Notes: generated by a model from the sequence alone, not told the origin. Positions 166 through 10,913 are shown, counted from the first letter of the stretch. The stretch: 10,913 bases of DNA from Thermoanaerobaculia bacterium (GCA_035644215.1 DASQPA010000064.1:1-10913), one strand, 5' to 3'. Translations and numbers: made by a program.

Positions 166-1233
166 TCAAGCCGAAGAGCTCTGGGGCACCAGAACGACCT
201 CGCACGGATTCTTCCGCCCGCGGATCAGGCGCGGGATACCTGCCTCCAGCTTGAATCCGTCCAAGTCGATTTGCGAACATCCAAGGTCGAAGGCCTTTTG
301 CAGGTCCGTGCCATAGCCGAGAGCGCGATAGAAACTCCGCGAGAAGCTGATCGCCGCTCTGTCGGTAATCCCCGCAGACATTCCGACCACCGCATCGGTG
401 TGCTCAGCTATAGCCTTTGCCTGCCCTTCGGACAGGCAGGCGTTGAGCACGACACAACGAAGGCGGTCTGAGAAGACGCGGAGCAAATTGGACAGGCTTT
501 CCGCCGACACCTCCCTGGCCACGCCCCCCTCGCTCTCCACAAGGATGGCGTTCGAACGGTTGCCGTGACCGCTGAAGTGGACGAGTCGCGGCCGGTGGGC
601 GAGAAGGGTCCGCTGAAGATCGTCGACACTTATGGCGAGGTCCGACGTGAGGAGGATTCGCTCCCGAAGGGGCGCCTCTCGGAGGACGGCCTCCACCTGG
701 TGAAGCTCGCGAGCAATCCCCAGCGCCGTGCTGCCGTCCGGATTGGCTCCCAGGAAGAGGAAGACCGCACCCGGAAAGAGACGCGCGTATACCAGGTCCT
801 GGATCTCCTGCAAGGAAACCTTCGTCCGGGCCTCCCCATGGATCTGTCGGAGAGCAGCAGCTGCAGCGGCGAGAGCTCGCTCGAGATCACCGGCTGCGAG
901 CTCCACTCTTGTCGAGTCCTCTCCGCTACGCCTTTCCCCGGGCAGCGCCTCAGCGAGATTCCGCAGGAGGGACCTCGCCGAGATCGCGCTGTTCCGGAGC
1001 AGGTGATCCACGGTTATCGTAACGAAGGAGAGAACTAGCACGAGATCCGGAATCAGCCCGAAACCATCGCCGAGCATCTCGTCACCTTCGAGGTGAGGGT
1101 CGGCGAAGTAGGCAGCGGCTAGCTCGTCGAAGTCCTCGATCTCGTCAGGAGCGAGCCGGGTGACGATAGGCTTCGCGAGGTCCCTGACGAGATCTTTCCC
1201 CGGTTCGCTGCGTAGAGCCTTGGCGATCCTCAT
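166..1233 (-). CDS. CHAT-domain (caspase-like Cys/His) peptidase with an unrecognised roughly 150-aa N-terminal helical domain; about 355 aa.
   Basis: Caspase-fold catalytic dyad motifs: PRLVHFSGHGN (His) and LRCVVLNACLSEG (Cys), preceded by a hydrophobic beta-strand AVFLFLGANPDG. This order and spacing is typical of CHAT/caspase-like domains. ATG at 1233 (4th codon of the track ORF, whose first codon is GTG at 1242) with Shine-Dalgarno AAGGTGA and a 5-nt spacer. Last gene of the operon. Confidence 0.75.
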   Translation of the reverse strand: MRIAKALRSEPGKDLVRDLAKPIVTRLAPDEIEDFDELAAAYFADPHLEGDEMLGDGFGLIPDLVLVLSFVTITVDHLLRNSAISARSLLRNLAEALPGERRSGEDSTRVELAAGDLERALAAAAAALRQIHGEARTKVSLQEIQDLVYARLFPGAVFLFLGANPDGSTALGIARELHQVEAVLREAPLRERILLTSDLAISVDDLQRTLLAHRPRLVHFSGHGNRSNAILVESEGGVAREVSAESLSNLLRVFSDRLRCVVLNACLSEGQAKAIAEHTDAVVGMSAGITDRAAISFSRSFYRALGYGTDLQKAFDLGCSQIDLDGFKLEAGIPRLIRGRKNPCEVVLVPQSSSA

Positions 1234-1263
1234 CGATCTCACCTTTCGCCGGCAGTCGCCGGT

Positions 1264-2508
1264 TCAAGCGGTCGTCCTGGCGTTGGCATTTCCCGCGGCC
1301 AGGACTCGGGTCTTCGTCGCCGCCGCCAACTGGGCGAAGGTAAAAACCTCGCCCTTGCCGAGCCCGACGGTGTCTCGGGGCTCGACCGGAGTGGCGACCT
1401 GGGGGGTCAGCCGGCGCCCGCTCACGAAGGTGCCGTTGGTCGAGCCCAGGTCGGCGAGCGAAAGCCGGCCGCCCGCGACCCACAGACGGGCGTGGTGGCG
1501 CGAGACGCCGTCGCTCTCGACGACGATGTCCCCTTCGCGGCCGAGGACGTAGGTGCCCTCCTCGGCCACGGAGGGGGGCGCGGCGAGGGCTCGTGGCGGC
1601 CGGCTCCCGGCCCCGACACCGGCACCGGCCCCGAGCGGCGCCTGGGCGGGGACCGGAAAACCCATCTGTCCCGCGTAGAAGAGCTGCATGAGGCTGTTGG
1701 TGCCGCCTGCCGCGCGCATCGCGACCTCCAGCGCCGCATCGTTCTGATAGAAGCCGAGGAGGAAATTGCGGGCCTCTTCGAGGGGGAGATCCCGCCCCTG
1801 CTCGCGCTTCACCTGCTCGACCATCTGGGCCGCCACCTGATTGAAGAGGAGACCTTTCTGGACCTGCGCCTCCCAGCCCGCGAGGCGCCCCTTGCCCTCC
1901 ATCTGCTCGCGCACTTCCGACTGGACGGCCTGCTTGACCTCTTTGTCGTCGGCGTCGACCTCGGTCAGCCAGACCTCCGGGACGGTGAGGCCCCAGCGGC
2001 GGGCGGTCTGCTCCAGGCCGCCCCGGATGCGCTCCCGCAGACCGCCCGCCGGCCCGCCGCCGAAAAGGACGCTGTCGATCCGCATCGACTGCACGGTCTC
2101 CCGGATCGAGTTCTGCGCCAGGCCGCGGAGGACGATGTTGGCTTCTTCTCCTCCCGCCTTTTGGCCATCCTCACCATCGCGCGAGAAGGGCTGGTAGGTG
2201 CCCGGCCCTTGCTCGAAGAGAGCGACGGCGTCGGTGACCGTGACGCGGAGAGTCGTCTTGAAGGAAATCCGCACCCGGTCGGCGGTGTAGTACTGTGCGG
2301 GCGGAATGTCCACCTGGCGTTCGCGGCGATAGATCACCACCAGCTCGGTGAGCCAAGGGAACAGCCATGTTAGCCCTTCCTGCCGCACGTCGTTCGTGCG
2401 CCGGCCGAGCACCAGCACGATTCCCACGGCGCCCACGGGGACGCGCTTCAAGCCGAGCCCCAGGATGATCAGGGCTCCCAGGGACAACACGACGACGGCA
2501 GCGAGCAT
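1264..2508 (-). CDS. SPFH/band-7 (stomatin/prohibitin/flotillin/HflKC-like) membrane protein with coiled-coil region and C-terminal FHA domain; about 414 aa.
   Basis: N-terminal TM helix MLAAVVVLSLGALIILGLGL, then an SPFH-like core: LKRVPVGAVGIVLVLGRRT...GLTWLFPWLTELVVIYRRERQVDIPPAQYYTADRVRISFKTTLRVTVTDAVALF...NIVLRGLAQNSIRETVQSMRIDSVLFGG. Charged helical region (EVKQAVQSEVREQMEGK...). C-terminal FHA domain: YVLGREGDIVVESDGVSRHHARLWV...LGSTNGTFVSGRRL. ATG at 2508 with GGGAGG (plus 2517-2522) and an 8-nt spacer. The 194-aa Arg/Pro-rich extension in track ORF 1264..3090 was rejected. Confidence 0.8.
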   Translation of the reverse strand: MLAAVVVLSLGALIILGLGLKRVPVGAVGIVLVLGRRTNDVRQEGLTWLFPWLTELVVIYRRERQVDIPPAQYYTADRVRISFKTTLRVTVTDAVALFEQGPGTYQPFSRDGEDGQKAGGEEANIVLRGLAQNSIRETVQSMRIDSVLFGGGPAGGLRERIRGGLEQTARRWGLTVPEVWLTEVDADDKEVKQAVQSEVREQMEGKGRLAGWEAQVQKGLLFNQVAAQMVEQVKREQGRDLPLEEARNFLLGFYQNDAALEVAMRAAGGTNSLMQLFYAGQMGFPVPAQAPLGAGAGVGAGSRPPRALAAPPSVAEEGTYVLGREGDIVVESDGVSRHHARLWVAGGRLSLADLGSTNGTFVSGRRLTPQVATPVEPRDTVGLGKGEVFTFAQLAAATKTRVLAAGNANARTTA

Positions 2509-2525: not shown

Positions 2526-3248
2526 CTAGGACGCGATGTAGAGCGGGCTGGACTGGGACTGGTTGGCGCGCCCCTGAGTATCCTCCAGCTGGGCCTCGGC
2601 CGAATAGGTACCGTTCGGCGCATTGGAGGGGAGCTCGAACTCCGCGGTCGCATCGACGATCCCACCGCCGTGGGGCACCTTGATCGTCGCGTCCTCGCCG
2701 GTCAGGTAGGAGCCCTGGTACTTGATGCCCCGGTAGCAATGGATCTCCAGGGTCTCCTTGGGATCGGGACCGATGACCAGATAGCGGATGTGGAGGGTCG
2801 CCTTCTGCCCCGGCTGGACGGTCTGCGGATCGAAGCGAATCTCCTGCACCCGGATCACGTAGCCGTCGCCCGGCTGGTAGTTGACGGCGCGCACCGCTTC
2901 GTCGCGGCTGTATTGAACGACGTCTTTGTGGCGCCCGATGAGATAGCCTGCAACCCCACCCACGGCGGCACCGGCCGCGACGCCGCGCGCTACGTTCTGG
3001 CCCAGCAACTTGGCCCGGAGCCCTCCGAGGACGCCGCCGACGATCGCTCCCGTCACGGCGCCCTTGCGGGAACGGTTGGCGGTCACCCACTCCTTTATGG
3101 ATTTCGGCTTTTGATCCTGCGAACCCGCCTGGGACGGGGCCGCAGAGTCGCCTCCGCCGGATGGCTCCTGGGACTGACAGTACGCCGGTGTCCCGGCCAG
3201 GGCTGCGAGCCAGATTGTCATGAGGGCCAATGCGGTGAATCGTTTCAT
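2526..3248 (-). CDS. Secreted glycine-zipper protein (Gly-zipper/17-kDa-surface-antigen-like segment) with a roughly 130-aa C-terminal domain of unknown function; about 240 aa.
   Basis: Starts MKRFTALALMTIWLAALAGTPAYCQ (signal peptide). Glycine zipper: GAVTGAIVGGVLGGLRAKLLGQNVARGVAAGAAVGGVAGYLIG. ATG at 3248 with GGGAGG (plus 3258-3263) and a 9-nt spacer. The upstream part of track ORF 2526..3398 is Arg-rich and was rejected. Confidence 0.7.
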   Translation of the reverse strand: MKRFTALALMTIWLAALAGTPAYCQSQEPSGGGDSAAPSQAGSQDQKPKSIKEWVTANRSRKGAVTGAIVGGVLGGLRAKLLGQNVARGVAAGAAVGGVAGYLIGRHKDVVQYSRDEAVRAVNYQPGDGYVIRVQEIRFDPQTVQPGQKATLHIRYLVIGPDPKETLEIHCYRGIKYQGSYLTGEDATIKVPHGGGIVDATAEFELPSNAPNGTYSAEAQLEDTQGRANQSQSSPLYIAS

Positions 3249-3270: not shown

Positions 3271-5037
3271 CTATTGCGGTGGCTTCTTGACCACCGAATC
3301 CTGGGTCTTGATCTTTGTCTTGTTGAAGAGATCCTTGAGGGCCTGATCGGCCTGTGCCGCGAGCTCCCGCGCCCGATCGGCGACCGTCTCGGGAACACCG
3401 TTCTCGCCGGCCAACTTCGTGGCCATCTGCCTGGCTTCAGGGTAGGACTTCTCGCCGATCAGGCCTTCGATCTGCTGCAGGCGCTGCTGCCACTTCTCCT
3501 TCTCGCTCTCCTTGCGAAGGGAGTCCGTTTTCAGCGAAATCTGTGTCGTGGTGATCTCCTCGTCGAGGGCATGCAGGCGGGCGACCTCTTCAATGAGATC
3601 GGCGCGGTAGGGAACGGCCGTCTCTTGCAGGCGGCTGAGCCGAGAACGGGCGGCGGTGAACTGCTGCGCCTCGATGTCGGAACGCACGATCTCTATCCCC
3701 TGCCGGAGGGTCTCGCGAATCCGGACGAGCTCAAGCTGATGGGTCTGCACGTCGACCATGGCGGGCGACGGACGGGAACGAGGCGGTTCCGAAGGTTGGC
3801 GCTCGGCCCGCGGCGCTTCGTGACGGTGCGAAGGTGCCACCGGCTCGGCCGGGGTGAGGACGGCGACCGGCGTCGACCGCAGATTCCCCTCCAGAGGGCG
3901 GGAGGACGGCGGCGCGGAGACGCTCTCCGGGCTCACCGAAGGCGACGGTCCCAGAGTCGCGGCGGCAGCCGGCGCCTCGGCCGGAGGCGGCGCGGCGGGC
4001 AGCGCGGCGAAGTGGGCGATACCGAAGGCCACGAAGGCAAGAAGGAGAGCGGCGCCAGCCGCCACCCACAGCCGCCGAGCGGCGGGCTTTCGGCCAGCTG
4101 CCCCGGGCAGCGGCGGCGGAGACGGACGAGGGAGTACCGGGGCCGGAGCGGGAGACGGGGCCGGCGGCGCCGGAGGGCGCTGGGGGACCGTCGGGGAGGT
4201 CGTGAGGTCGGCGCTCCCCGGGGTCATCGCGTCGCGGAGAGCCCGCAGCATCTCGCCGGCGCTCTGGAAGCGATCGTCCGGTCGCTTGGCGAGCGCCCGC
4301 AACACTACTCTCGCCACCGCCGGCGGCACTCCCGACTGCAGCGTGGAGAGATCGGGTGGAGTCGCCTCTACCTGGAACTTGCTGACCTCGAACACGCTTT
4401 CGGCGTCGAAGGGCGGCGCGCCGTTCAGCATCTCAAAAAAAACGATGGCGGCGCTGTAGATGTCGGTCCGGTGGTCCATCTCGCGCGGCCGGAGGATCTG
4501 TTCGGGAGACATGTAGACTGGCGTACCGATCGAGGACTGCGACGCGGTCAGACGCTTGTCGCCGACGAGGAGGGCGATGCCGAAGTCCATGAGCTTCACC
4601 CGCCCGTCGGGGGTGAGCAGGATGTTCGACGGCTTGACGTCCCTGTGGATGACCCCTTCGGAGTGGGCGTAGTCGAGAGCCGCGAGCACCTGGGAGAAGA
4701 TCCCCACCGCCTCGCCCAAGGCGAGACCCCGACCCGCGCGCTCGGCGAGCCAGCTGTCGCAGGAGCGCCCGGTGACCAGCTCCATGACGATGAAAAAGTC
4801 GTCCTCGTCCTCGATCAGGTCGAACACCGAGACGATGTTGGGATGCTGCAGGCGCGCCTGGGTCCGCGCCTCGGAGAAAAACCTTTCTTTGAACTCGGGC
4901 TGGCGGGTCAGCTCGGGCGCCAGCTCCTTGATCGCCACCTGGCGGCGCAGGTGCTCGTGGGTGCCGCGGTAGACGACCCCCATGCCGCCCCGGCCGACCA
5001 ACTCGTCGATGCGGTAGGGTCCGACGTGCGTCTTCAT
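3271..5037 (-). CDS. Hanks-type Ser/Thr protein kinase (RD kinase), Pro-rich juxtamembrane segment, single TM helix, and a roughly 240-aa extracytoplasmic helical/coiled-coil sensor domain; about 588 aa.
   Basis: GRGGMGVVYRG; VAIKEL; HRDVKPSNILL; DFGIA; GTPVYMSPEQ; DIYSAAIVFFEMLNGAPPF. Juxtamembrane sequence TTSPTVPQRPPAPPAPSPAPAPVLPRPSPPPLPG. TM helix LWVAAGAALLLAFVAFGIAHFAAL. The C-terminal domain is helical with a coiled-coil-like stretch (KTDSLRKESEKEKWQQRLQQIEGL). ATG at 5037 with AGGAG (plus 5045-5049) and a 7-nt spacer. The track ORF extension (3271..5229) is Arg-rich and was rejected. Confidence 0.9.
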   Translation of the reverse strand: MKTHVGPYRIDELVGRGGMGVVYRGTHEHLRRQVAIKELAPELTRQPEFKERFFSEARTQARLQHPNIVSVFDLIEDEDDFFIVMELVTGRSCDSWLAERAGRGLALGEAVGIFSQVLAALDYAHSEGVIHRDVKPSNILLTPDGRVKLMDFGIALLVGDKRLTASQSSIGTPVYMSPEQILRPREMDHRTDIYSAAIVFFEMLNGAPPFDAESVFEVSKFQVEATPPDLSTLQSGVPPAVARVVLRALAKRPDDRFQSAGEMLRALRDAMTPGSADLTTSPTVPQRPPAPPAPSPAPAPVLPRPSPPPLPGAAGRKPAARRLWVAAGAALLLAFVAFGIAHFAALPAAPPPAEAPAAAATLGPSPSVSPESVSAPPSSRPLEGNLRSTPVAVLTPAEPVAPSHRHEAPRAERQPSEPPRSRPSPAMVDVQTHQLELVRIRETLRQGIEIVRSDIEAQQFTAARSRLSRLQETAVPYRADLIEEVARLHALDEEITTTQISLKTDSLRKESEKEKWQQRLQQIEGLIGEKSYPEARQMATKLAGENGVPETVADRARELAAQADQALKDLFNKTKIKTQDSVVKKPPQ

Positions 5038-6296
5038 GGCTGTTCTCCTGGGGTTTTGTCCGCCGCCCCGCCGTCGGCGCCATGGGCGCGGCGGAAAGCC
5101 GCCTGGCGCGCGGCGACGGCGGCGAGGAGTGGCGCGCCGCTCGCGTAACGTCCACGACCGTCGAGCAGTGAGAAGTAGTGCTTGTGGCCGCCGCGCGCCG
5201 CGAGGACGAGCGTGTAAGGGCTCTCCCACAGGCCGCCGTCGACCGCGAGCGAGGTGAGCTCAGCCCAGGGAACCGACCACTCGGCGGCACCGTGGCCGGC
5301 GCGGTGGAGGGAGATTCCGTCCTTGGACAAGCGCAGCTGCGCCGTCGCCTCTCCGCCGAAGCCCACCCCGGCGGTGGCCGGACGCACCGTGAACACCGAA
5401 TCGGAGCGCTCGGCTGCCGATGCAGGCTCGGTTTTTCCTGCGGCGGTCGCTGGCGCAGACACGGTCCTCTTCCCGGCGGCCGTAACCGCGGGTGCGGCTT
5501 TTTCGGCAGCCGCAGGCGCGGTTTTCCCGGTGGCCGGTGGGGGTGCGCTCGCCAACTTGGCCACCGCCCGGTCCTTGAGGTCGCGGGTGCGCACCACCAG
5601 GTCCACCGGCAACCGCGGCTCGAGCAGCAGGCAGTCGGCCTGTTCGACCGCCGCCTCCAACTTGCCGTCGAGCACGAGGTCTGCGATCTGGAGCACCTCG
5701 CGGCTCCATTCCTGCAGCTCCGAAGCCGAGGGTGCCGGGGGCTGATCGCCCACCCGCAGCAGACCGGGACGCTCCGCCAGCCGCCGAAACCAAGCGAGAA
5801 GGGGCGCCGACGACCGCAGGGCTGCGGCGACGGCGAGCCGGGCGGCGCGGTGGTCGTCTCCCGCGGTGCCGGCAGGCAGGAGGAGCGGACCGAAGAGGAA
5901 GAGCTCCGGCGGGTCCTTCTTCGGCGGACCGTCGCCCAGGGCGATGAGCAGGGTGGCGGTCGCCACGGCGGACCGCCCGGAACGCGGCAACGTCACCTGC
6001 AGGTCCCACCAGAGGGGCACCACCTCCGGACCCGGCGCGCGGCACACCTCCGTGAACCGGGCAGCGGCCGGGAGGGCGGAGTGGTCGGCGCAGACCACCA
6101 CGCCGCCGTCCCAGGCCCGTTCGCGCAGGGCCTCCTCGATCTCGCTGCGGTCCTCCGCCGCCAGGGAACGGCCCGGAGCGTCCGCGGCGCGGAGGATCGT
6201 GCGGAGCGCGGGAGACTCCGCCTCGGCGCCCCAGCCGGCCGGCACCCCCGGCACACCCGCCAGTGCCGCCAGCGCGAGGACAGCCCACGCCATCAT
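5034..6296 (-). CDS. Secreted/periplasmic protein of unknown function, about 420 aa: signal peptide, roughly 240-aa N-domain, Ala/Pro/Lys-rich flexible linker, roughly 100-aa C-terminal beta-rich (possibly PH-like) domain.
   Basis: ATG pair at 6296/6293 begins MMAWAVLALAALAGVPGVPAGWGAEA, a Sec-type signal peptide. The upstream part of track ORF 5034..6485 is Arg/Cys-rich junk. Low-complexity linker: PPPATGKTAPAAAEKAAPAVTAAGKRTVSAPATAAGKTEPASAAE. Stop TGA (5034-5036) overlaps the ATG of the downstream kinase (ATGA). The exact start is uncertain because the Shine-Dalgarno sequence is weak (AGGTG directly abutting the ATG). Confidence 0.6.
   Translation of the reverse strand: MMAWAVLALAALAGVPGVPAGWGAEAESPALRTILRAADAPGRSLAAEDRSEIEEALRERAWDGGVVVCADHSALPAAARFTEVCRAPGPEVVPLWWDLQVTLPRSGRSAVATATLLIALGDGPPKKDPPELFLFGPLLLPAGTAGDDHRAARLAVAAALRSSAPLLAWFRRLAERPGLLRVGDQPPAPSASELQEWSREVLQIADLVLDGKLEAAVEQADCLLLEPRLPVDLVVRTRDLKDRAVAKLASAPPPATGKTAPAAAEKAAPAVTAAGKRTVSAPATAAGKTEPASAAERSDSVFTVRPATAGVGFGGEATAQLRLSKDGISLHRAGHGAAEWSVPWAELTSLAVDGGLWESPYTLVLAARGGHKHYFSLLDGRGRYASGAPLLAAVAARQAAFRRAHGADGGAADKTPGEQP
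5045..5049 (-). promoter_or_regulatory. Shine-Dalgarno AGGAG for kinase 1, inside the 3' end of the upstream secreted-protein gene.
   Basis: Plus ctcct at 5045-5049, 7 nt upstream of ATG 5037-5035. Consistent with coupled translation across the ATGA overlap. Confidence 0.6.
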
Positions 6297-6372
6297 CACC
6301 TGCCGGATCCGCCGGCCGCCGGAATTCGTCGTTTGCTCCACGTCCTGTCTCCTTCCTTCCGCTCTCCCGGCT

Positions 6373-7542
6373 CTACGGCCGGGGATAGGACAAATGCTTC
6401 TGCCGCAGCGTGGCGAGCACCGCCTCGCCGGCCGGGCCGCCGGCCTCGGCGAGCTGACAGCTGCGCCGCATCTCCTCCAGCTCATGGCGCGCCCAAAGTC
6501 CGTCCTCCGAGTCCTCGGCGAGGGTGGCCGCGAGATCGCGCGCCTCGAGATAGGTCGGATCGGTCAACGCGCAATGGTGATCGAGCACCTTCTCCTCGAA
6601 GGCCGACTGCAGTGCCTGAAACCGCGGCCGGAGCCCCGCTCCGCCCGCCTCCATCGGCACGCCGCCGCTCGGGGGCGGGGTCCCTGGCTCTACCGGACCG
6701 CCCACCACCAGCCAGCCGCCAAGGAGGGCGAGACCGCCGGCGGTGGCCGCGGCCAGCCACCACTGCGAGCGCAGGAACGGGATCCGGCGGGGCGTCGCGG
6801 TGCCGGCCGGCGGCAGGACGGCACCGCGACGGGCACGCCGATATGCGAGGCGCAGCGCTCCGGCATCGGTATAGCGTTCGCCGGGCAGGTGGCGTCTCGC
6901 CTTCTCCACCACCGCCATCAGAGCGGCCGCCGGCCGCGGCAGGGCGGCGAGGATTTCGGCGAGCATCTGGCCCAACGCGTAGACATCGGTCGCGCAGGCG
7001 AGCGCGCCGCCTTCGACCTGCTCGGGCGCTCCGTAGGGGAGCGAGTAGGCCCGGAGCCCAGGGCCCCCCGCCCGCCGGGCGATCCCGAAATCGATCAGCA
7101 CCGGTTGCGGGCCGGGGGCGCTCTCGGTGACGAGGACGTTGTCCGGCTTCAAGTCGAGGTGGAGGAAGGGCACCGCACGGTGGTGGAGATAGTCCACCGC
7201 GCCCAACATCTGCTCGAAGAGGTCGAGCACCCGCTCGGCGGCCGCGGCGTTCCTCTGCACCCAGGCGTCGAGCGGCACGCCGTCGACTTTCTCCATCAAC
7301 AGGCAGACCCGCTCCTGGGGGTCGAAGTGGCAGCGCCGGAAGGTCACGATGTTGGGATGCCGCAGCTGCCTCAGAAGCGCCGCCTCCTCGGCGAAGGCGG
7401 CGCGCACGGCGGGGAGAGCGCTCATCTCGGCGTTCAGGCGCTTGAGGATCAGCCTCTCGGGGAGAGCGCTCGCCGCGTCCTCGACCTCGAAGATCTCCGA
7501 AAAGCCGCCGCCCGAAAGGCGGGCGATGATCCGATAGTCCAT
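6373..7542 (-). CDS. Hanks-type Ser/Thr protein kinase, non-RD subclass (HLD instead of HRD), single TM helix and a short periplasmic helical domain; 389 aa.
   Basis: Gly-rich loop LSGGGFSEIFEV; beta3 Lys in LILKRL; catalytic loop HLDLKPDNVLV (Arg of HRD replaced by Leu); DFGIA; APE (YGAPEQ). TM helix WWLAAATAGGLALLGGWLVVGG, then a roughly 100-aa C-terminal domain. ATG at 7542 with GGAG 9 nt upstream. Confidence 0.85.
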   Translation of the reverse strand: MDYRIIARLSGGGFSEIFEVEDAASALPERLILKRLNAEMSALPAVRAAFAEEAALLRQLRHPNIVTFRRCHFDPQERVCLLMEKVDGVPLDAWVQRNAAAAERVLDLFEQMLGAVDYLHHRAVPFLHLDLKPDNVLVTESAPGPQPVLIDFGIARRAGGPGLRAYSLPYGAPEQVEGGALACATDVYALGQMLAEILAALPRPAAALMAVVEKARRHLPGERYTDAGALRLAYRRARRGAVLPPAGTATPRRIPFLRSQWWLAAATAGGLALLGGWLVVGGPVEPGTPPPSGGVPMEAGGAGLRPRFQALQSAFEEKVLDHHCALTDPTYLEARDLAATLAEDSEDGLWARHELEEMRRSCQLAEAGGPAGEAVLATLRQKHLSYPRP

Positions 7543-7562: not shown

Positions 7563-9023
7563 TCAGAGCACGCCATGGCTGTGCAGGAAGGAGCGGATGT
7601 CGTCAGCGCTCACCGCCTTGTTGCCGGCGTTGACCGGCTCCTGCATCAGGATTTCCTGGCCCTGCACGTTGATCGATTTCGCCTGCTGGAACTGCTGCGA
7701 GACGATGCCGATGAGCTCGCCTTTGTCGTTAATCACCGCGCCGCCGCTGCTGCCGTGGGTGACCGCGGCGTCGAAGACGACGTAGTTGGCGCCGGTGCTG
7801 CCGGTCAGCGGGTGGGTGACCGTGCCGGCGACGAAGGTGGGGGTCACCTCGGTGATGTTCGACAGGTCGGCGCCGAATCCCGACAGATTGCGGACCTGCG
7901 CCGGCCGCTCGCCCAAGTTGGCCGGATAGCTGATCACCGCGATGCGGTCGGTAACGTGGACGGCGGCATTCGAGGCGACGATCGGCACCTCGTGCGCCGC
8001 CGTCGTCTGGATCTGGACGAGCGCCAAGTCGAACTCGTCCGAGGAGGCGACCAGGGTGGCCTTCAGCGGCTGCTGGCCCGGGAATTGAACCTGCAGTTCG
8101 TCGTACTCGGCCTTGGCCGAGCTCTTGCGCTGAAGGACCTCCCAGTCGGCGAACTGCAGCTTCCAGGGCTCGACCACGTGCTTGGCGGTGAGCACCAGCC
8201 CGGGCCGGACCAGCACACCCGAACCGGTGACGCCGCCGAAGAGCAGAACTTCGCCCGAGGCGAGCGCCACCCCTTGGTTGTTGGAGGCGACGATCTTGGG
8301 CATCTTCACGCGGTAGAGGCAGCGGATGTGCACCGCCGCCGGGCTCACCTTCTTTTCGACGTCCCCCCAGATATTGCCGGCCTGTTGAGTGACCTTTGCG
8401 AGCCGGGTCTGTGTCTCGGAGGTCTCCGCCTTGTGCCGGACCTCCTGACGGTGGTTCCAAAAGAGGAAGGCGGTAAGTCCGCCGCCGGCTAAGACCAGCA
8501 CGGCGAGGAGGCCGGCGGTCAGCCAGACGCCGGTCGAGCGGCGGGTGCTGGCGATCTGGCCGGCGACGGCGTCGCGCTCCTCGCCGCGGGCGCGGTCGAT
8601 CTCGCGCAGGAGAGTCGCCCGGCCGACCGACTCCTTGCCGGCCGCGGGCGGCGGGGCACCGGCCGGAACCGCCGCCGCCGCCGGAGCGTCCGCCATCTCG
8701 AGCACCGCCTGCATCTCCGGACCCTGGCGGGCGAGGCGGATGCGCGAGCCGTCGGCCACCGCGATGCGCTGGAAGGGCGGACAGGGCGCGCCGTTGACGA
8801 AGGTGCCGTTCGAGCTGCGCTTGTCCTCGATGTAGAGGCGCCCCTTCTCCAGGCTCAATTCGGCGTGGGTGGTGCTCACGCTGTCGTCGGCCGTGTCGCT
8901 GAACTTGACGTCGTTCGTCTCGCCGCGGCCGAGTCGCAACACCTGGCCCTCCTTGATGGCGATGCGCTGGCTGCGGCCAGCGAGCGATCCGTTGAGATGC
9001 CTGAGGCTCAGAATCGTCGACAC
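7563..9023 (-). CDS. N-terminal FHA domain - single TM helix - C-terminal trypsin-like (S1/chymotrypsin-fold) serine protease, 486 aa.
   Basis: FHA domain at aa ~25-100: LRLGRGETNDV...STTHAEL...KRSSNGTFVNG. TM helix at aa ~166-189: VWLTAGLLAVLVLAGGGLTAFLFW. The protease domain has catalytic His (LTAKHVV), Asp (DEFDLALV) and a GDSGG-like Ser motif (THGSSGGAVI). GTG start at 9023 with Shine-Dalgarno AGGAGGAG (plus 9029-9036) and a 5-nt spacer. Confidence 0.85.
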   Translation of the reverse strand: MSTILSLRHLNGSLAGRSQRIAIKEGQVLRLGRGETNDVKFSDTADDSVSTTHAELSLEKGRLYIEDKRSSNGTFVNGAPCPPFQRIAVADGSRIRLARQGPEMQAVLEMADAPAAAAVPAGAPPPAAGKESVGRATLLREIDRARGEERDAVAGQIASTRRSTGVWLTAGLLAVLVLAGGGLTAFLFWNHRQEVRHKAETSETQTRLAKVTQQAGNIWGDVEKKVSPAAVHIRCLYRVKMPKIVASNNQGVALASGEVLLFGGVTGSGVLVRPGLVLTAKHVVEPWKLQFADWEVLQRKSSAKAEYDELQVQFPGQQPLKATLVASSDEFDLALVQIQTTAAHEVPIVASNAAVHVTDRIAVISYPANLGERPAQVRNLSGFGADLSNITEVTPTFVAGTVTHPLTGSTGANYVVFDAAVTHGSSGGAVINDKGELIGIVSQQFQQAKSINVQGQEILMQEPVNAGNKAVSADDIRSFLHSHGVL

Positions 9024-9063: not shown

Positions 9064-9855
9064 TCATGGAAGGGAAGCGCCGGAAGAAGGCTCGACCGGC
9101 TCGATTTGGAGAAAGATCAGCTCCACTCCACCGCAGCGGATACGGTCGCGGTCGCGCAGAGCGACCGTGCCGTTGGTCGGTACCTCCTCGCCGTTGACGA
9201 AGGTGCCATTGGTCGACATCCGGTCGGCGAGGAAGAAGCTGGTGCCGCGGTGGAGGAGCAAGGCATGCTCGGCGGATACCTGGAGATCGGCGCCCAGACA
9301 GACGTCGCTCGCGCGGTCGCCGCCGATCGTGTTCTTGCCCTGGCGGACGGCGAAAACGGTCCCTCCTGGCCCGAGCGAGGGCGCCGCAAGAACGGCCACC
9401 AGGGGCCGGGAGGCCACCGCCGGGGAGGAAATCGGGGCCGCCGGCGCGGCGATCTCGACGGCCGGGGGCAACCCAGCGGGAGAGCTCGCCTTGCCGGCAT
9501 CCCCCAGGGCACCGGCGAGCATCGTCCGGCGCGGCGCCGCTGACCCCGCCAAGCCCGCCGGCACTGCCTCCAGGCGGGTGGCGCGGCTGCCGCTCGGCAC
9601 CGTCGGCTGGACCACGGTCGGGTTGTAGGAGGAGGGCGACGGTGGGCCGGCGGCGGCCCCTTCGAGCCGGGTGGAGCGCCCCGGACCGTCTCCGCCCGCC
9701 CGCAGGCGGTCACAGTACGGGCAACTGCGCCAGCTGGGATCGATCGGATGCCCAGCGGGGCAGCGCAGGGTCGCCGCCTGCAAGGGAGCGCCGCACATGA
9801 GGCAGGCCGGCTCCGCGTCGGGATTCAGGGTACGACAGCTGGCGCATTCGATCAC
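9064..9855 (-). CDS. Double zinc-ribbon (4x Cys pairs) + Pro/Ala-rich linker + C-terminal FHA domain protein, 263 aa.
   Basis: The N-terminus has two CxxC...CxxC units (CASC...CLMCG; CPAGH...CPYCD). The C-terminus is a canonical FHA domain: GGDRASDVCL...SAEHALLL...MSTNGTFVNGEEV...RDRDRIRCGG. The start is GTG at 9855, preceded by a strong Shine-Dalgarno AAGGAG (plus 9863-9868) with a 7-nt spacer. The GTGA overlap with the PP2C stop implies translational coupling. Confidence 0.8.
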   Translation of the reverse strand: MIECASCRTLNPDAEPACLMCGAPLQAATLRCPAGHPIDPSWRSCPYCDRLRAGGDGPGRSTRLEGAAAGPPSPSSYNPTVVQPTVPSGSRATRLEAVPAGLAGSAAPRRTMLAGALGDAGKASSPAGLPPAVEIAAPAAPISSPAVASRPLVAVLAAPSLGPGGTVFAVRQGKNTIGGDRASDVCLGADLQVSAEHALLLHRGTSFFLADRMSTNGTFVNGEEVPTNGTVALRDRDRIRCGGVELIFLQIEPVEPSSGASLP

Positions 9856-10733
9856 AGGGTCTCTCCTTGGAAGGTCTCGCCGCCGCCCGCCGGGAATGCC
9901 TCGACCCGGGTGATGCGCCGGCCTCGTCCCGAGCTCTCGGCGCAGGTCACCCGCAGGTAGCCGACCGTGATGTTGTCCGCGCTGTGCGCCGCCAAGGCGG
10001 CGTCGAGAAGCCGTTGGCAGATCTCGGCTGTGGACCCGGAACTCGCCGCGAGGACGACGATCTGGGCGATCTCGTCATCGGGCAGGGCGCCGTGCAGGCC
10101 GTCCGACGAGAGCAGGATGAGGTCGCCGGAGTTGAGCGCAAGCGGCACTTGCACCTCGGGCTCCAGAGGTCCGGACTGGCCGATGGCACGCTGGATCACG
10201 TTGCTGTCGGGGTGGCCGAACGCCTCCTCTTCGGCGAGCAGCCCGTCGCGCACCATCTGGCCGACCAACGAATGGTCGGAGGTCAAGCGGGTGAACGCCC
10301 GCCCACGCAGGAGATAGGCGCGGCTGTCGCCCGCATGGGCCAGGTGGAGCATCGGCTGGCCGGGCTCGCCGGCGGCGACCGCCATCACCGCGGTGGCTCC
10401 CATACCCTCGGCGCCGCCGCGTGCGGCCGTGGCGCGCACCGCCTCCTGGGAGGCGGCGAAGGCCTGCCGAAGCCGGTCCTCCCAGGCCAGACTGTCGCCT
10501 CCCGGCCGCTGCAGCACCTCGACGGCCACCCGCAAGACGATCTCCGCCGCCTCGCGGCCCGCCGCGTGACCGCCCATTCCATCGACAACGAGGAGCACCC
10601 CCTCTCCCGCCTCGCCCTGCCAGGCGGCCGCCGCGTCCTGGTTCTCCTCCCGCACCGGACCGCAGATTGAGACCACGTCCATCTCGATTCGATCCGCCGG
10701 GCGGCCGGTCTGCGGCATGAGCGGTGGGTTCAT
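9852..10733 (-). CDS. PP2C-family Ser/Thr protein phosphatase, about 293 aa. I take ATG at 10733; ATG at 10718 or 10682 (MDVVSICGPVREENQD, the canonical PP2C N-terminus) are alternatives.
   Basis: Minus-strand translation carries classic PP2C metal-binding motifs: LLVVDGMGGHAAG, HAGDSRAYLL, LLSSDGLHG, DNITVGYL. The N-terminal R-x-x-NQD motif is also present. GGGAG lies 6 nt upstream of ATG 10733. The stop TGA (9852-9854) overlaps the GTG start of the next gene. The track ORF 9852..10838 starts at TTG with a Pro/Arg-rich, non-protein-like extension, so I trimmed it to the Shine-Dalgarno-preceded ATG. Confidence 0.85.
   Translation of the reverse strand: MNPPLMPQTGRPADRIEMDVVSICGPVREENQDAAAAWQGEAGEGVLLVVDGMGGHAAGREAAEIVLRVAVEVLQRPGGDSLAWEDRLRQAFAASQEAVRATAARGGAEGMGATAVMAVAAGEPGQPMLHLAHAGDSRAYLLRGRAFTRLTSDHSLVGQMVRDGLLAEEEAFGHPDSNVIQRAIGQSGPLEPEVQVPLALNSGDLILLSSDGLHGALPDDEIAQIVVLAASSGSTAEICQRLLDAALAAHSADNITVGYLRVTCAESSGRGRRITRVEAFPAGGGETFQGETL
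9863..9868 (-). promoter_or_regulatory. Shine-Dalgarno AAGGAG for the zinc-ribbon-FHA gene, which starts at GTG, embedded in the 3' end of the PP2C gene.
   Basis: Plus ctcctt at 9863-9868, 7 nt upstream of GTG 9855-9853. Confidence 0.65.
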
Positions 10734-10739
10734 TGGGGT

Positions 10740-10744
10740 CTCCC
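10740..10744 (-). promoter_or_regulatory. Shine-Dalgarno GGGAG for the PP2C gene, the first gene of the operon.
   Basis: Plus ctccc at 10740-10744, 6 nt upstream of ATG 10733-10731. Confidence 0.55.
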
Positions 10745-10913
10745 AGGGTTCGGGCGGCGGCCGATCCGCCGCCGTTCTCCTAGACACCGGATCGCCGCGA
10801 ATGTTGAGCCCGGGAGAGCGACCTCCAGGACCCAACAAAACAGCCGCCTTCAGGGTCTCAATAGGACGAAATGCGCGCCGTATGGACCGTCCACGACCGA
10901 CCCTTGGCCCGGC

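Follow-up and report, generated by a model that had tools for sequence, protein, structure and literature searches.

A rare SPFH-FHA fusion protein from a Thermoanaerobaculia bacterium that probably links membrane scaffolding to Hanks-kinase phospho-signalling

Solved SPFH complexes share a cage plan in which CC1 and CC2 helices and a hydrophobic C-terminal motif form the wall and the cap, with a relation between CC1 length and subunit number of y = 0.1782x + 10.22 (PMC12624060). Despite many structures, the choice of clients and the fate of those clients in SPFH cages (stomatin, prohibitin, flotillin, HflK/C, QmcA) are largely open. SPFH scaffolds that act on membrane kinases have been described for HflKC with BarA and B. 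subtilis FloT with KinC (cited in PMC13086221), and Arabidopsis HIR2-BAK1/BIR provides another case in which an SPFH protein controls a membrane kinase (PMC13534476). Known modules that contain an FHA protein include archaeal ArnA (zinc ribbon-FHA) with ArnB (vWA) and bacterial vWA-FHA-PP2C-kinase cassettes such as D. radiodurans DRA0331-0334 (PMC6509490; bioRxiv 10.64898/2026.01.23.701218). A protein in which an SPFH scaffold is fused to an FHA domain is rare and apparently undescribed; literature searches found no characterised SPFH-FHA fusion, in agreement with the initial annotation of this locus.

The window analysed here is a stretch of 10,913 nucleotides from a Thermoanaerobaculia bacterium, and its features are collected in Table 1. 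The initial annotation had placed the SPFH-FHA gene at 1264-2508, and this proved exact on the minus strand, with the ATG at 2508, an AGGGAGG ribosome-binding site 8 nt upstream and the stop codon at 1264-1266. Pfam, the AF2 model (mean pLDDT 77.5) and Foldseek bore out the earlier calls of a transmembrane (TM) helix, an SPFH domain, a helical stretch and an FHA domain; the protein thus consists of a TM helix, SPFH/Band_7 domain, coiled-coil (CC) helices, linker and canonical FHA domain. A 100% identical protein, HZF07869.1, is deposited at NCBI from a metagenome-assembled genome (MAG) as 'SPFH domain-containing protein [Thermoanaerobaculia bacterium]'. Public annotation of the family goes no further than this name or 'HflC', some members being called 'regulator of protease activity HflC' by JGI. 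A promoter and terminator scan of the window gave counts no higher than in shuffled sequence and is uninformative at the high GC of this organism.

Table 1. Positions in the window of the SPFH-FHA gene, its parts and the neighbouring genes
Feature	Coordinates	Strand	Basis
SPFH-FHA gene	1264..2508	(-)	414 aa + stop
N-terminal TM anchor, residues ~2-20	2449..2505	(-)	Hydropathy and AF2 helix 2-18
SPFH/Band_7 domain, residues 22-208	1885..2445	(-)	Pfam PF01145
Family-specific loop in SPFH domain, residues 100-124, QGPGTYxPF ... EE	2137..2211	(-)	Alignment
CC1/CC2-like helical region	1666..1944	(-)	AF2, alignment, Foldseek alignments reaching through the region
Disordered Pro/Ala/Gly-rich linker, residues 283-317	1558..1662	(-)	pLDDT <50 at 283-312
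FHA domain, residues 318-390	1339..1557	(-)	Pfam PF00498, AF2 beta-sandwich
C-terminal tail, residues 391-414	1267..1338	(-)	Short helix, then A-A-T-x-T-[RG]-x-[LI] motif
CHAT (caspase-like) protein, 21 nt downstream of SPFH-FHA	166..1242	(-)	CHAT E 3.5e-7
Gly-zipper secreted protein or lipoprotein, upstream of SPFH-FHA	2526..3248	(-)	Pfam Gly-zipper_YMGG, Gly-zipper_Omp
Hanks-type Ser/Thr kinase 1	3271..5037	(-)	Pkinase E 7.9e-53
Fast-evolving signal-anchored protein	5034..6341	(-)	No family match
Second, shorter Hanks-type kinase (kinase 2), then one TM	6373..7542	(-)	Pkinase E 1.8e-26
FHA-TM-trypsin-like serine protease	7563..9023	(-)	FHA E 5.9e-16, Trypsin_2 E 1.2e-21
Double zinc ribbon-linker-FHA protein (ZnR-FHA)	9064..9855	(-)	FHA E 4e-13, DZR 1.8e-5
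PP2C Ser/Thr phosphatase, first gene of the operon	9852..10838	(-)	PP2C E 7.6e-19

A profile search, which the initial annotation had named as the deciding check, upheld the SPFH/band-7 assignment of the N-terminal region: PF01145 matched residues 22-208 with an E-value of 1.3e-19 (71.4 bits; gathering threshold 23.6). Foldseek comparison with the PDB agreed at about 1e-12, with matches to stomatin (9z7u, E 8e-13), HflK/C (7vhq, E 1e-12), QmcA (8z5g, E 8e-12) and prohibitin (8rrh, E about 1.5e-11), all at probability 1.0 over 280-320 aligned columns that span the TM helix, the SPFH domain and the CC helices; flotillin was a weaker match (E 7e-9). Global TM-scores to the solved cages were low, 0.3-0.47 with the AF2 monomer model, because the helices of a monomer model are angled differently from those of the cages. 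With the family profile run against PDB sequences, the nearest solved SPFH proteins were QmcA (8z5g, E 3.8e-5) and stomatin (E 1.4e-4), at scores of just 24-26 bits, and the SPFH domain is in this sense divergent. Pfam gave no match to Flot or another flotillin family, and the helical region has only about 90 residues; the NCBIfam SPFH-type models, including those for HflK and HflC, likewise had no match. The domain carries a family-specific loop, in which Gln100, Gly101, Pro102, Thr104, Pro107, Phe108 and Glu122 are invariant in an alignment of 27 homologs, while its centre is variable, acidic and glycine-rich and is modelled at low confidence (pLDDT <50 at 114-117). The QGPGTYxPF loop is missing from the FHA-less relatives P0083 and P0222.

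In the AF2 model the TM helix is followed by an alpha/beta SPFH core (20-186) and a long helix (189-237, kinked at 212-217), and then by helices at 243-253, 257-266 and 272-281, the helical region ending in a conserved hydrophobic motif, LMxLFYLQHLGxPLP. The 49-residue CC1-like helix would correspond, very roughly and by extrapolation of the published relation, to about 19 subunits (range 17-21), an estimate made shaky, like the CC1 length itself, by the low confidence at which the kink is modelled. Hydropathy analysis found a single hydrophobic segment, residues 1-20, and this N-terminal helix is kept in all 27 homologs, which have 0-2 Lys or Arg residues ahead of it and 1-3 in the five residues after it. 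Since positive charge lies C-terminal of the TM, since there is but one hydrophobic segment and since an FHA domain is fused, an N-out/C-in topology is predicted, with the whole soluble part in the cytoplasm. The partner protease, described below, occurs in two domain orders, FHA-TM-trypsin and signal peptide-trypsin-TM-FHA, and both orders would place the FHA domain in the cytoplasm and the protease on the far side of the membrane.

The linker between the CC helices and the FHA domain is 32-40 residues long in most members, with a Pro, Ala and Gly fraction of 0.35-0.65. In a sister clade, a CxxC...CxxC zinc ribbon occupies this position, within linkers of 68-77 residues in P0029, P0030, P0032 and P0033, and also in P0074, P0075 and P0077-79. 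The FHA domain itself is modelled with confidence (pLDDT 89-94) and matches PF00498 over the full profile (1-67 of 67; residues 320-384, E 1.2e-14, 54.9 bits against 20.7). Its phosphothreonine-binding set comprises Gly323-Arg324, Ser336-Arg337-His338-His339 and Ser356-Thr357-Asn358-Gly359, of which Gly323, Arg324, Ser336, Arg337, His339, Ser356, Asn358 and Gly359 are invariant in the 27 homologs at identities down to 44%. The Arg/Ser/Asn residues whose absence, by the initial annotation, would have spoken against its FHA call are therefore retained, with the His in addition, and the domain is a canonical FHA, predicted to bind phosphothreonine. Solved FHA structures matching it include 6hc1 (E 2e-13), OdhI (2kb3, 1e-10), FhaA (3po8, 1e-9) and GarA, as well as ArnA (5a8i, E 2.4e-8). 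None of the named NCBIfam equivalogs reached its cutoff (FhaB_Rv0019c 42.7 bits against 125, VI_FHA 20.1 against 120, OdhI 22.2 against 200), all of these matches being confined to the FHA domain and FhaB/FipA being the best partial one. Behind the FHA domain, the tail motif reads AATKTRVL in the window protein; its conservation is limited to this operon type (type A), where most members have it.

The family is small. It forms about 40 clusters at 90% identity; a search of 1.84 billion representatives gave about 10 clusters at 50% identity, and a scan of 241 million metagenome records with a narrow, SPFH-only alignment gave 7 loci. All members come from metagenomes or MAGs, and 2.9 million viral contigs contained no relatives. 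When the SPFH part alone served as a profile, it retrieved this family and nothing else, and nearly all of the proteins so retrieved carry the FHA domain. The exception is a split form in L094, where an SPFH-zinc ribbon gene (P0222) directly precedes a separate zinc ribbon-FHA gene, flanked by trypsin-TM-FHA, FHA and PP2C genes; this arrangement is the Rosetta-stone counterpart of the fused gene. SPFH-linked FHA domains score 67-77 bits with one another and at most 42 bits with neighbouring FHA domains, so that they are orthologous to each other and not to their neighbours, and the fusion is ancient, of single origin and maintained. Beyond the roughly 10 true family clusters, the matches listed in the representative search were mostly multi-FHA proteins, and FHA domains may have been fused independently to other SPFH clades. 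When the full-length alignment was run against GTDB species genomes, the FHA pattern swamped the search (the best 80 of at least 600 loci match the FHA part only), which therefore has no bearing on the presence or taxonomy of the family.

The gene order of the operon is PP2C, ZnR-FHA, FHA-TM-protease, kinase(s), periplasmic unknown, Gly-zipper protein and SPFH-FHA, the last conserved gene. The phosphatase, which probably begins at a codon downstream of the TTG that is listed, matches the NCBIfam model Stp1_PP2C_phos at E 3e-52, under the cutoff of that model, and its gene overlaps the next by 4 bp. The FHA-TM-protease has its TM at 163-190, with the FHA domain predicted to be cytoplasmic and the protease periplasmic, conserved His, Asp and Ser motifs, and a linker of sequence VGRATLLREIDRA. 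Kinase 2 keeps the catalytic motifs HLDLKPxN, DFG and APE. In kinase 1, whose ATG overlaps the preceding stop codon at 5034-5037, a kinase domain predicted to be cytoplasmic is followed by a single TM and then by a helical periplasmic domain, conserved among orthologs, at the C-terminus. The protein encoded between the two kinases is probably periplasmic; it has no Pfam, NCBIfam or PADLOC match, only three near-identical homologs, and positional orthologs recognised by phmmer. Its AF2 model (pLDDT 48) is uninterpretable, with seven strands and a helix at residues 315-420 giving merely a hint of a PH-like domain. The Gly-zipper protein weakly matches TagQ (E 1.3e-6, far under the NCBIfam cutoff). 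PADLOC had no match for SPFH-FHA, the Gly-zipper protein or ZnR-FHA, and for the kinases, the protease and CHAT it matched generic domains only ('chat', E 2.8e-14, for the latter).

Twelve loci with usable flanks allowed the neighbourhood to be compared. PP2C lies within 10 kb of SPFH-FHA in 11 of them, together with other FHA proteins, and Hanks kinases are near wherever the flanks extend far enough. In L102, phmmer at the threshold used recovered no PP2C and no adjacent kinase. The operon of seven to eight genes is kept at 44-68% protein identity in L001, L002, L003, L007 and L009, with fragments in L097, L100 and L101. In all eight the Gly-zipper gene is directly upstream of SPFH-FHA, with a lipobox in the orthologs of L002 and L007; the ZnR-FHA gene is also conserved across the orthologous operons, and kinase 2 is missing from L001 and L003. 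A membrane protease with a predicted periplasmic trypsin-like domain and a cytoplasmic FHA domain is found in 8/12 loci, with inverted domain order and unchanged topology in L094. It is missing from the other four, and the L003 ortholog has His replaced by Gln in a catalytic motif, so that protease control can be neither the sole nor the universal role. CHAT genes are adjacent or nearby in the window, L001, L002 and L003 (4/6 long type-A loci), at varying positions and with varying architectures, and were not found in L007 or L009; because presence and position vary between loci, CHAT was rejected as a core client protease. The sister clade adjoins FHA, FHA-trypsin, vWA-FHA, PP2C and kinase genes in another order, and one relative clusters with SLT and NlpC/P60 cell-wall hydrolases. 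Each locus has one SPFH gene. The initial annotation was correct that the gene is flanked by the Gly-zipper gene upstream and the CHAT gene downstream; the former is always directly upstream in type A. CHAT is not the conserved partner, and the protease that recurs is the FHA-TM-trypsin-like protein.

Together, these findings suggest that SPFH-FHA probably links membrane scaffolding to phospho-signalling. The reading favoured here, at a probability of roughly 0.55, is that it forms a cytoplasm-facing SPFH oligomer that recruits, or is recruited to, phosphothreonine-marked partners of an envelope signalling module. By such a mechanism, the firing TM kinases would create phosphothreonine sites on themselves or on partners, and the FHA domains of the three FHA proteins would dock on these sites. 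The SPFH protein would oligomerise like other SPFH proteins, with very roughly 17-21 subunits, to present a multivalent FHA crown; kinase(s) and the FHA-tethered protease would be clustered in one membrane patch, or corralled there by their TM and cytoplasmic parts, and PP2C would reset the system. That the protein assembles into an oligomer or cage, what its phosphothreonine ligand is and how it affects protease or kinases are what we infer here. The proposal of the initial annotation that partnerships depend on phosphorylation survives as a general idea and fits the kinase/PP2C/FHA neighbourhood, whereas an enclosure of the protease domain in the manner of HflK/C and FtsH cannot hold in literal form: the catalytic domain is predicted to be periplasmic and the SPFH and FHA domains cytoplasmic, so that only the protease TM and its cytoplasmic FHA domain could sit under a cage. 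The 'TTSPT' segment of kinase 1, put forward earlier as the FHA ligand, is not conserved in the ortholog alignment, and no conserved pT-x-x-[ILV] was found in the kinase juxtamembrane regions, which are unalignable between orthologs.

Other explanations of the fusion have to be weighed against this signalling scaffold. That an assembly error, frameshift or chance read-through joined SPFH and FHA might be suspected from the distant relative in which SPFH-ZnR and ZnR-FHA are separate genes, but the idea is effectively refuted by conservation, as the same architecture stands in one uninterrupted ORF in more than 35 sequences obtained independently, from many samples and with many assemblers, at 43-100% identity and with conserved linker length. 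An unlikely alternative is self-regulation, in which the FHA domain would bind phosphothreonine on SPFH-FHA itself, within or between subunits, and gate the assembly, opening or closing of the oligomer as a GarA/OdhI-like intramolecular switch, instead of recruiting foreign clients. The tail offers a candidate site directly behind the FHA domain: the second Thr of its motif has Leu or Ile at +3, pT-x-x-[ILV] is a common FHA preference, and the self-binding proteins OdhI and GarA are among the closest solved FHA domains. However, the motif is absent from the zinc-ribbon clade and from P0028, P0031 and P0034, the type-A members P0013, P0014 and P0016 have no Thr at the tail position, residues 391-400 form in the AF2 model a helix that packs behind the FHA domain and not a free peptide, and the co-encoding of two other FHA proteins and of kinases would be left unexplained.

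It is similarly improbable that the SPFH part builds no cage and simply anchors the FHA domain at the inner membrane face or at particular lipids, as a membrane adaptor comparable to mycobacterial FhaB/FipA. The low score of the SPFH domain to QmcA and stomatin, the family-specific loop, the lack of an NCBIfam SPFH equivalog and the partial FhaB/FipA match of the FHA part would be consistent with an adaptor; yet the CC1/CC2-like helices and hydrophobic C-terminal motif, the elements of cage wall and cap (PMC12624060), are present and conserved, the Foldseek alignments extend through the CC helices, and a plain anchor should not need about 265 conserved residues. A role in conflict or defence is very doubtful. 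The operon would then be a kinase-triggered abortive-infection or programmed-death module with protease effectors, and SPFH-FHA a membrane-acting effector or regulator; CHAT/caspase-family genes of varying architecture do adjoin the operon in the window, L001, L002 and L003, variable effectors are typical of conflict systems (PMC7159879), Abi, TIR and integrase genes lie 6-10 kb away in L003 and L004, and PADLOC models match the kinases, protease and CHAT. Those PADLOC matches are generic, however, and four of the operon's proteins, SPFH-FHA among them, have none; CHAT is missing from two long operons, relatives are absent from the viral contigs, and the periplasmic protease, the lipoprotein, the TM kinases with periplasmic domains and the SLT and NlpC/P60 neighbours of one relative point rather to envelope sensing or remodelling.

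A scaffold of the favoured kind would extend the outputs of Hanks-kinase/PP2C/FHA systems to the organisation of membrane microdomains. The reader fused to SPFH is one of well-understood specificity, and it is placed at the C-terminus, which is the cage apex in solved complexes; the eight-gene set is thus a compact and testable model for a phosphorylation-dependent SPFH scaffold. A bolder version, tentative and rather doubtful, makes the family a new kind of phospho-gated membrane compartment, a cytoplasm-facing dome whose apical crown of about 17-21 FHA domains would capture phosphothreonine-marked single-pass proteins, namely the operon's kinases and the FHA-tethered protease, and by corralling them switch on or off either the periplasmic protease or the cascade of kinases. 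No earlier SPFH cage would have had a module for client selection that is built in and defined by sequence, and the family would provide a direct mechanistic link between bacterial Hanks-kinase signalling and SPFH microdomains. If the protein were only a membrane-anchored FHA adaptor, it would add modestly to the known range of FHA architectures.

In comparison with known SPFH systems, SPFH-FHA most resembles in layout the QmcA/stomatin type, which has a single N-terminal TM, SPFH domain, CC helices and a short C-terminal region in about 285-305 residues; the soluble part of QmcA also faces the cytoplasm. It differs in the extra QGPGTYxPF loop and in carrying a linker and FHA domain, or a zinc ribbon and FHA domain, where cage caps normally end, and sequence identity to the solved QmcA/stomatin-type proteins is only about 15-19%. 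E. coli QmcA has the NfeD partner YbbJ, whereas no NfeD gene was found by Pfam among the called genes of the window or of any locus. HflK/C and FtsH provide the parallel of an SPFH scaffold encoded alongside a membrane-anchored protease, besides the fold match to 7vhq. However, HflK/C is a paralog pair that faces the periplasm and encloses the periplasmic and TM parts of FtsH, whereas SPFH-FHA is apparently a single SPFH gene with a predicted cytoplasmic product, and its partner protease has its catalytic domain across the membrane and is trypsin/DegS-like and ATP-independent in contrast to the AAA+ FtsH.

On the signalling side, mycobacterial FhaA and FhaB/FipA with PknA/B and PstP likewise combine canonical FHA domains with TM Hanks kinases and a PP2C, and the type VI threonine phosphorylation pathway of P. 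aeruginosa (Fha1/PpkA-PppA-TagQRST) likewise co-encodes FHA, TM kinase and PP2C; the TagQ/TagR-PpkA-PppA-Fha1 layout is echoed by the outer lipoprotein and periplasmic unknown of the operon. None of FhaA, FhaB/FipA and Fha1 has an SPFH domain, and no type VI, FtsW/RodA or PBP genes were found in these loci; the likeness of the operon is an analogy of layout and not membership. A resemblance to the Arn and vWA-FHA modules is seen in the sister clade, which adjoins ZnR-FHA, vWA-FHA, PP2C and kinase genes, and in the many family members that end in ZnR-FHA, but those modules lack an SPFH protein and the window's operon lacks a vWA protein. HflKC-BarA, FloT-KinC and HIR2-BAK1, which have no fused phospho-reader and no operon with the kinase, share with the reading favoured here the theme of an SPFH oligomer that governs the clustering, mobility or activity of a kinase; in SPFH-FHA, the coupling is made by the FHA domain and by synteny.

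SPFH-FHA is encoded by one of nine genes in the window, every one of which lies on the minus strand; its ATG stands 17 nt past the stop of the upstream gene, with a ribosome-binding-type AGGGAGG 8 nt upstream. The fusion of an SPFH domain to a C-terminal FHA domain, described in the initial annotation, was borne out by Pfam matches, by an AlphaFold2 model built with 27 homologs as input (mean pLDDT 77.5) and by structural comparison, and its parts are listed in the table. A single hydrophobic segment is present, right at the N-terminal end. Foldseek matched the model to stomatin (PDB 9z7u, E 8e-13), HflK/C (7vhq, 1e-12), QmcA (8z5g, 8e-12) and prohibitin (8rrh, 1.5e-11), as well as to erlin, flotillin and vault, with probability 1.0 throughout and over 280-320 columns spanning the anchor, SPFH domain and helices. 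Among solved SPFH proteins the family sequence profile reached only QmcA (E 3.8e-5) and stomatin (1.4e-4), and among solved FHA domains it matched many, including 6hc1 (2e-13), OdhI (1e-10), FhaA (1e-9), GarA and ArnA. The canonical pThr-binding set, G323-R324, S336-x-x-H339 and N358-G359, is invariant in 27 of 27 aligned homologs, so that neither of the earlier reservations, that the N-terminal region might not be SPFH/band-7 or that the FHA domain might lack these residues, applies. Judged by sequence, SPFH-FHA falls within the SPFH superfamily, closest to QmcA and stomatin, with a bona fide FHA domain. Assignment as HflK/C (no equivalog matches), as flotillin (no Flot region) or as a stomatin-NfeD pair (no NfeD neighbour) was rejected.

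Positions of SPFH-FHA, its parts and associated genes (window genes on the minus strand)
Feature	Where	Position	Remark
SPFH-FHA gene	window	ATG 2508, stop 1264-1266	414 aa
TM helix	SPFH-FHA residues	2-18	AlphaFold2
alpha/beta core	SPFH-FHA residues	20-186	AlphaFold2
Band_7/SPFH	SPFH-FHA residues	22-208	Pfam E 1.3e-19, 71.4 bits (cutoff 23.6)
49-residue helix	SPFH-FHA residues	189-237	AlphaFold2; low-confidence kink 212-217
three short helices	SPFH-FHA residues	to 281	AlphaFold2
Pro/Ala/Gly linker	SPFH-FHA residues	283-317	AlphaFold2; disordered
FHA beta-sandwich	SPFH-FHA residues	318-390	AlphaFold2, pLDDT about 90
FHA	SPFH-FHA residues	320-384	Pfam, complete profile, E 1.2e-14, 54.9 bits (cutoff 20.7)
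short C-terminal helix, then tail	SPFH-FHA residues	end	AlphaFold2
tail motif	window	1267-1338	residues 391-414
CHAT/caspase family	window	166-1242
CHAT/caspase family	L001	1510-3459
CHAT/caspase family	L002	13278-20756
CHAT/caspase family	L003	1951-2700
Gly-zipper protein	window	2526-3248
signal-anchored protein	window	5034-6341
protease ortholog	L003	4487-5887
defence/mobile-element genes	L003	17559-21202
defence/mobile-element genes	L004	9567-12932
kinases with hydrolases	L095/L098	425-3753
~260-280-aa protein	L090	4475-5317	mutual phmmer E ~1e-7
~260-280-aa protein	L091	5525-6364	mutual phmmer E ~1e-7
~260-280-aa protein	L092	11323-12108	mutual phmmer E ~1e-7
split locus	L094	1363-6654	NCBI GCA_964537865.1, contig CAZIDA010000128.1

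The NCBI entry identical to SPFH-FHA comes from a Thermoanaerobaculia MAG and is titled 'SPFH domain-containing protein', relatives in JGI are named 'regulator of protease activity HflC', and the FHA domain is mentioned in none of the annotations found for the family in these databases. By three database measures the family is rare: Band_7 plus FHA proteins with full-length alignment form about 36 clusters at 90% identity among 5.8 billion; 1.84 billion representatives at 50% identity, scanned exhaustively with HMMER, yielded about 10 full-length clusters, beyond which unrelated multi-FHA proteins dominate the list; and a pattern scan with SPFH-only motifs gave seven loci among 241 million JGI metagenome records. 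No relatives were found in 2.9 million viral contigs. A profile of the SPFH domain and helices alone recovers this family and nothing else, and the SPFH module is thus a distinct clade, hardly ever seen without a fused FHA among the sequences recovered.

A CxxC...CxxC zinc ribbon sits in the linker, between helices and FHA, of many of the remoter members (among them P0029, P0030, P0032, P0033, P0074, P0075 and P0077-79, alignment columns ~355-385; loci L005 and L090-L093), and this ribbon appears to have been lost in the window's clade. The C-terminal half of these members resembles the stand-alone zinc-ribbon-FHA protein of the same clusters, and also archaeal ArnA. Two relatives, P0083 and P0222, stop after the zinc ribbon, without FHA. 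At the P0222 locus (L094), the order is signal peptide-trypsin-TM-FHA, SPFH-CC-Zn ribbon (P0222), double-Zn-ribbon-FHA, another FHA gene and PP2C, so that the next gene encodes a separate zinc-ribbon-FHA protein; this arrangement represents the fusion in split form. Across operon types the SPFH-fused FHA domains are mutual best matches (67-77 bits), as against 42 bits or less with the FHA domains of neighbouring genes, and the fusion is thus single, old and maintained; this conservation refutes its explanation as an assembly artefact.

The window operon runs from PP2C through double-Zn-ribbon-FHA, FHA-TM-trypsin-like protease, kinase 2 (with a TM segment), a signal-anchored protein, kinase 1 (kinase-TM-periplasmic helical domain) and a Gly-zipper protein to SPFH-FHA and CHAT. 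Four-base overlaps at 5034-5037 (stop of the signal-anchored protein, ATG of kinase 1) and 9852-9855 (PP2C and zinc-ribbon-FHA) are consistent with translational coupling in one long operon, and no terminator-like sites above background were found between the window genes. This order (type A) is kept in L001, L002, L003, L007 and L009, with SPFH-FHA identities of 44-68%, and is also seen in the short fragments L097, L100 and L101; kinase 2 is missing from L001 and L003, and the signal-anchored protein is reduced in L001. Type B loci, comprising the zinc-ribbon clade and a second group (L005, L092, L095/L098, L103), have a different gene set, with the SPFH-FHA gene divergent from FHA, sometimes FHA-trypsin, vWA-FHA, long PP2C and kinase genes. 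Within 10 kb, PP2C is encoded at 11 and an FHA-tethered trypsin-like protease at 8 of the 12 loci with usable flanks; further FHA proteins occur at all 12, and kinases at every locus whose flanks extend far enough. By genome context, SPFH-FHA is strictly coupled to an envelope-spanning Hanks-kinase/PP2C/FHA module.

No family matches the signal-anchored protein, and 5.8 billion clusters gave only three close homologs; phmmer barely picks up its positional orthologs (E 1e-10 to 1e-18), and its residues ~315-420, seven strands and a C-terminal helix in a poor AlphaFold2 model (pLDDT 48), are possibly PH-like. The Gly-zipper protein weakly matches the NCBIfam model of TagQ, a lipoprotein of type VI secretion (E 1.3e-6; 27.9 bits, cutoff 300), over the glycine-zipper segment only, and lipoboxes are clear in the L002 and L007 orthologs and less typical in the window copy (…LAGTPAYC). 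His/Asp/Ser motifs are kept in the FHA-TM-trypsin proteases except in L003, where Gln replaces the catalytic His (LTAKQV, as against LTAKHV elsewhere), possibly making this one lineage's copy a pseudo-protease. Members of the zinc-ribbon clade always have, after the SPFH-ZnR-FHA gene, one for a conserved ~260-280-aa protein without Pfam match, which has no counterpart in the window operon.

The CHAT neighbour pointed out in the initial annotation did not hold up as a conserved partner. The CHAT-family genes that accompany the operon in four loci (window, L001, L002 and L003) differ in position, strand and architecture (CHAT alone, CHAT-FGE-sulfatase, CHAT-TPR, and Peptidase_C14-HEAT, or caspase-HEAT) and are absent in L007 and L009, and CHAT is therefore an occasional accessory. 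In the window copy, SGHG and NAC motifs look, by eye, like a His/Cys catalytic dyad. These variable CHAT/caspase neighbours, together with Abi/TIR genes nearby in L003 and L004, do fit a rival reading in which the operon would serve conflict or defence, with proteases as effectors; it is opposed by PADLOC results on the window operon (generic domain matches only, and none for SPFH-FHA), by the lack of viral relatives, by the envelope-type components, and by one relative clustered with SLT and NlpC/P60 hydrolases. The defence or mobile-element genes in L003 and L004 (Peptidase_M78/DUF4411, AbiJ/Abi_C, phage integrase, a CAP12-PCTIR TIR protein) lie about 6-10 kb off the operon, with thiamine and pantothenate housekeeping genes in between. 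At L095/L098, kinases are interleaved with an SLT-TPR lytic transglycosylase and an NlpC/P60 peptidoglycan hydrolase, replacing the trypsin-like protease, which hints at a cell-wall remodelling connection.

Across the family, 0-2 Lys/Arg and 0-4 Asp/Glu precede the TM helix and 1-3 Lys/Arg directly follow it; because there is no second hydrophobic segment, the SPFH domain, helices and FHA share one membrane side. On established rules this side is probably cytoplasmic, as both positive-inside charge placement and the dependence of FHA on pThr made by kinases would require. The partner protease provides an independent topology check, as either domain order, FHA-TM-trypsin in the window or the reverse in L094, would place FHA inside and protease outside. 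Literal enclosure of the protease domain, of HflK/C-FtsH type, is ruled out by this predicted topology, and only the protease TM segment and cytoplasmic FHA could sit under the dome.

By sequence and model, SPFH-FHA has every element that forms the wall and the cap in SPFH cages of known structure, followed by a flexible tether and a predicted competent pThr reader. In solved cages the C-terminal regions meet at the apex, sealing by the variable cap is not complete, and subunit number follows CC1 length (y = 0.1782x + 10.22; PMC12624060); by rough extrapolation, weakened by the model kink, about 19 subunits would be expected for a CC1 of 49 residues. For this family, all of whose members are from uncultured bacteria, we propose that the protein would form an SPFH oligomer with numerous FHA domains exposed at the cytoplasmic apex, and that the kinases would make pThr sites on themselves or partner proteins. 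Docking of the operon's three FHA proteins on those sites would gather kinases and FHA-tethered protease in one SPFH-organised membrane patch, and PP2C would undo the assembly. Less probably, SPFH-FHA may be a plain membrane-anchored FHA adaptor, with no cage, which would leave the conserved CC and C-terminal elements unexplained. In another rival reading, the protein would regulate itself through its own tail motif, A-A-T-x-T-[RG]-x-[LI]. The motif lies directly past FHA, has Leu/Ile at +3 from its second Thr and is kept in most members of the window's operon type, but other clades do not have it, and P0013, P0014 and P0016 have no Thr in it. The tail may be a self-ligand or merely a capping helix. 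The TTSPT segment of kinase 1, earlier put forward as the FHA ligand, lies in a juxtamembrane region that is not conserved among orthologs, and this proposal was not sustained.

A full-text literature search for SPFH or stomatin with FHA or forkhead-associated found no description of the fusion, in agreement with the initial annotation. The two modules are well known; their combination and context are conserved, rare and undescribed, and SPFH-FHA provides a tractable handle on client selection by an SPFH assembly. The window operon is similar in layout to P. aeruginosa TagQRST-PpkA-PppA-Fha1 and to the mycobacterial FhaA/FhaB-PstP-PknA/B cluster, by analogy only, with scores far below family cutoffs, and the sister clade is likewise similar to ArnA/ArnB-like ZnR-FHA/vWA cassettes (PMC6509490), again as an analogy with scores below cutoffs. 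SPFH scaffolds act on membrane kinases in HflKC-BarA and FloT-KinC (cited in PMC13086221) and in HIR2-BAK1 (PMC13534476); in SPFH-FHA, by contrast, the kinase link would be hard-wired through the fused reader domain.
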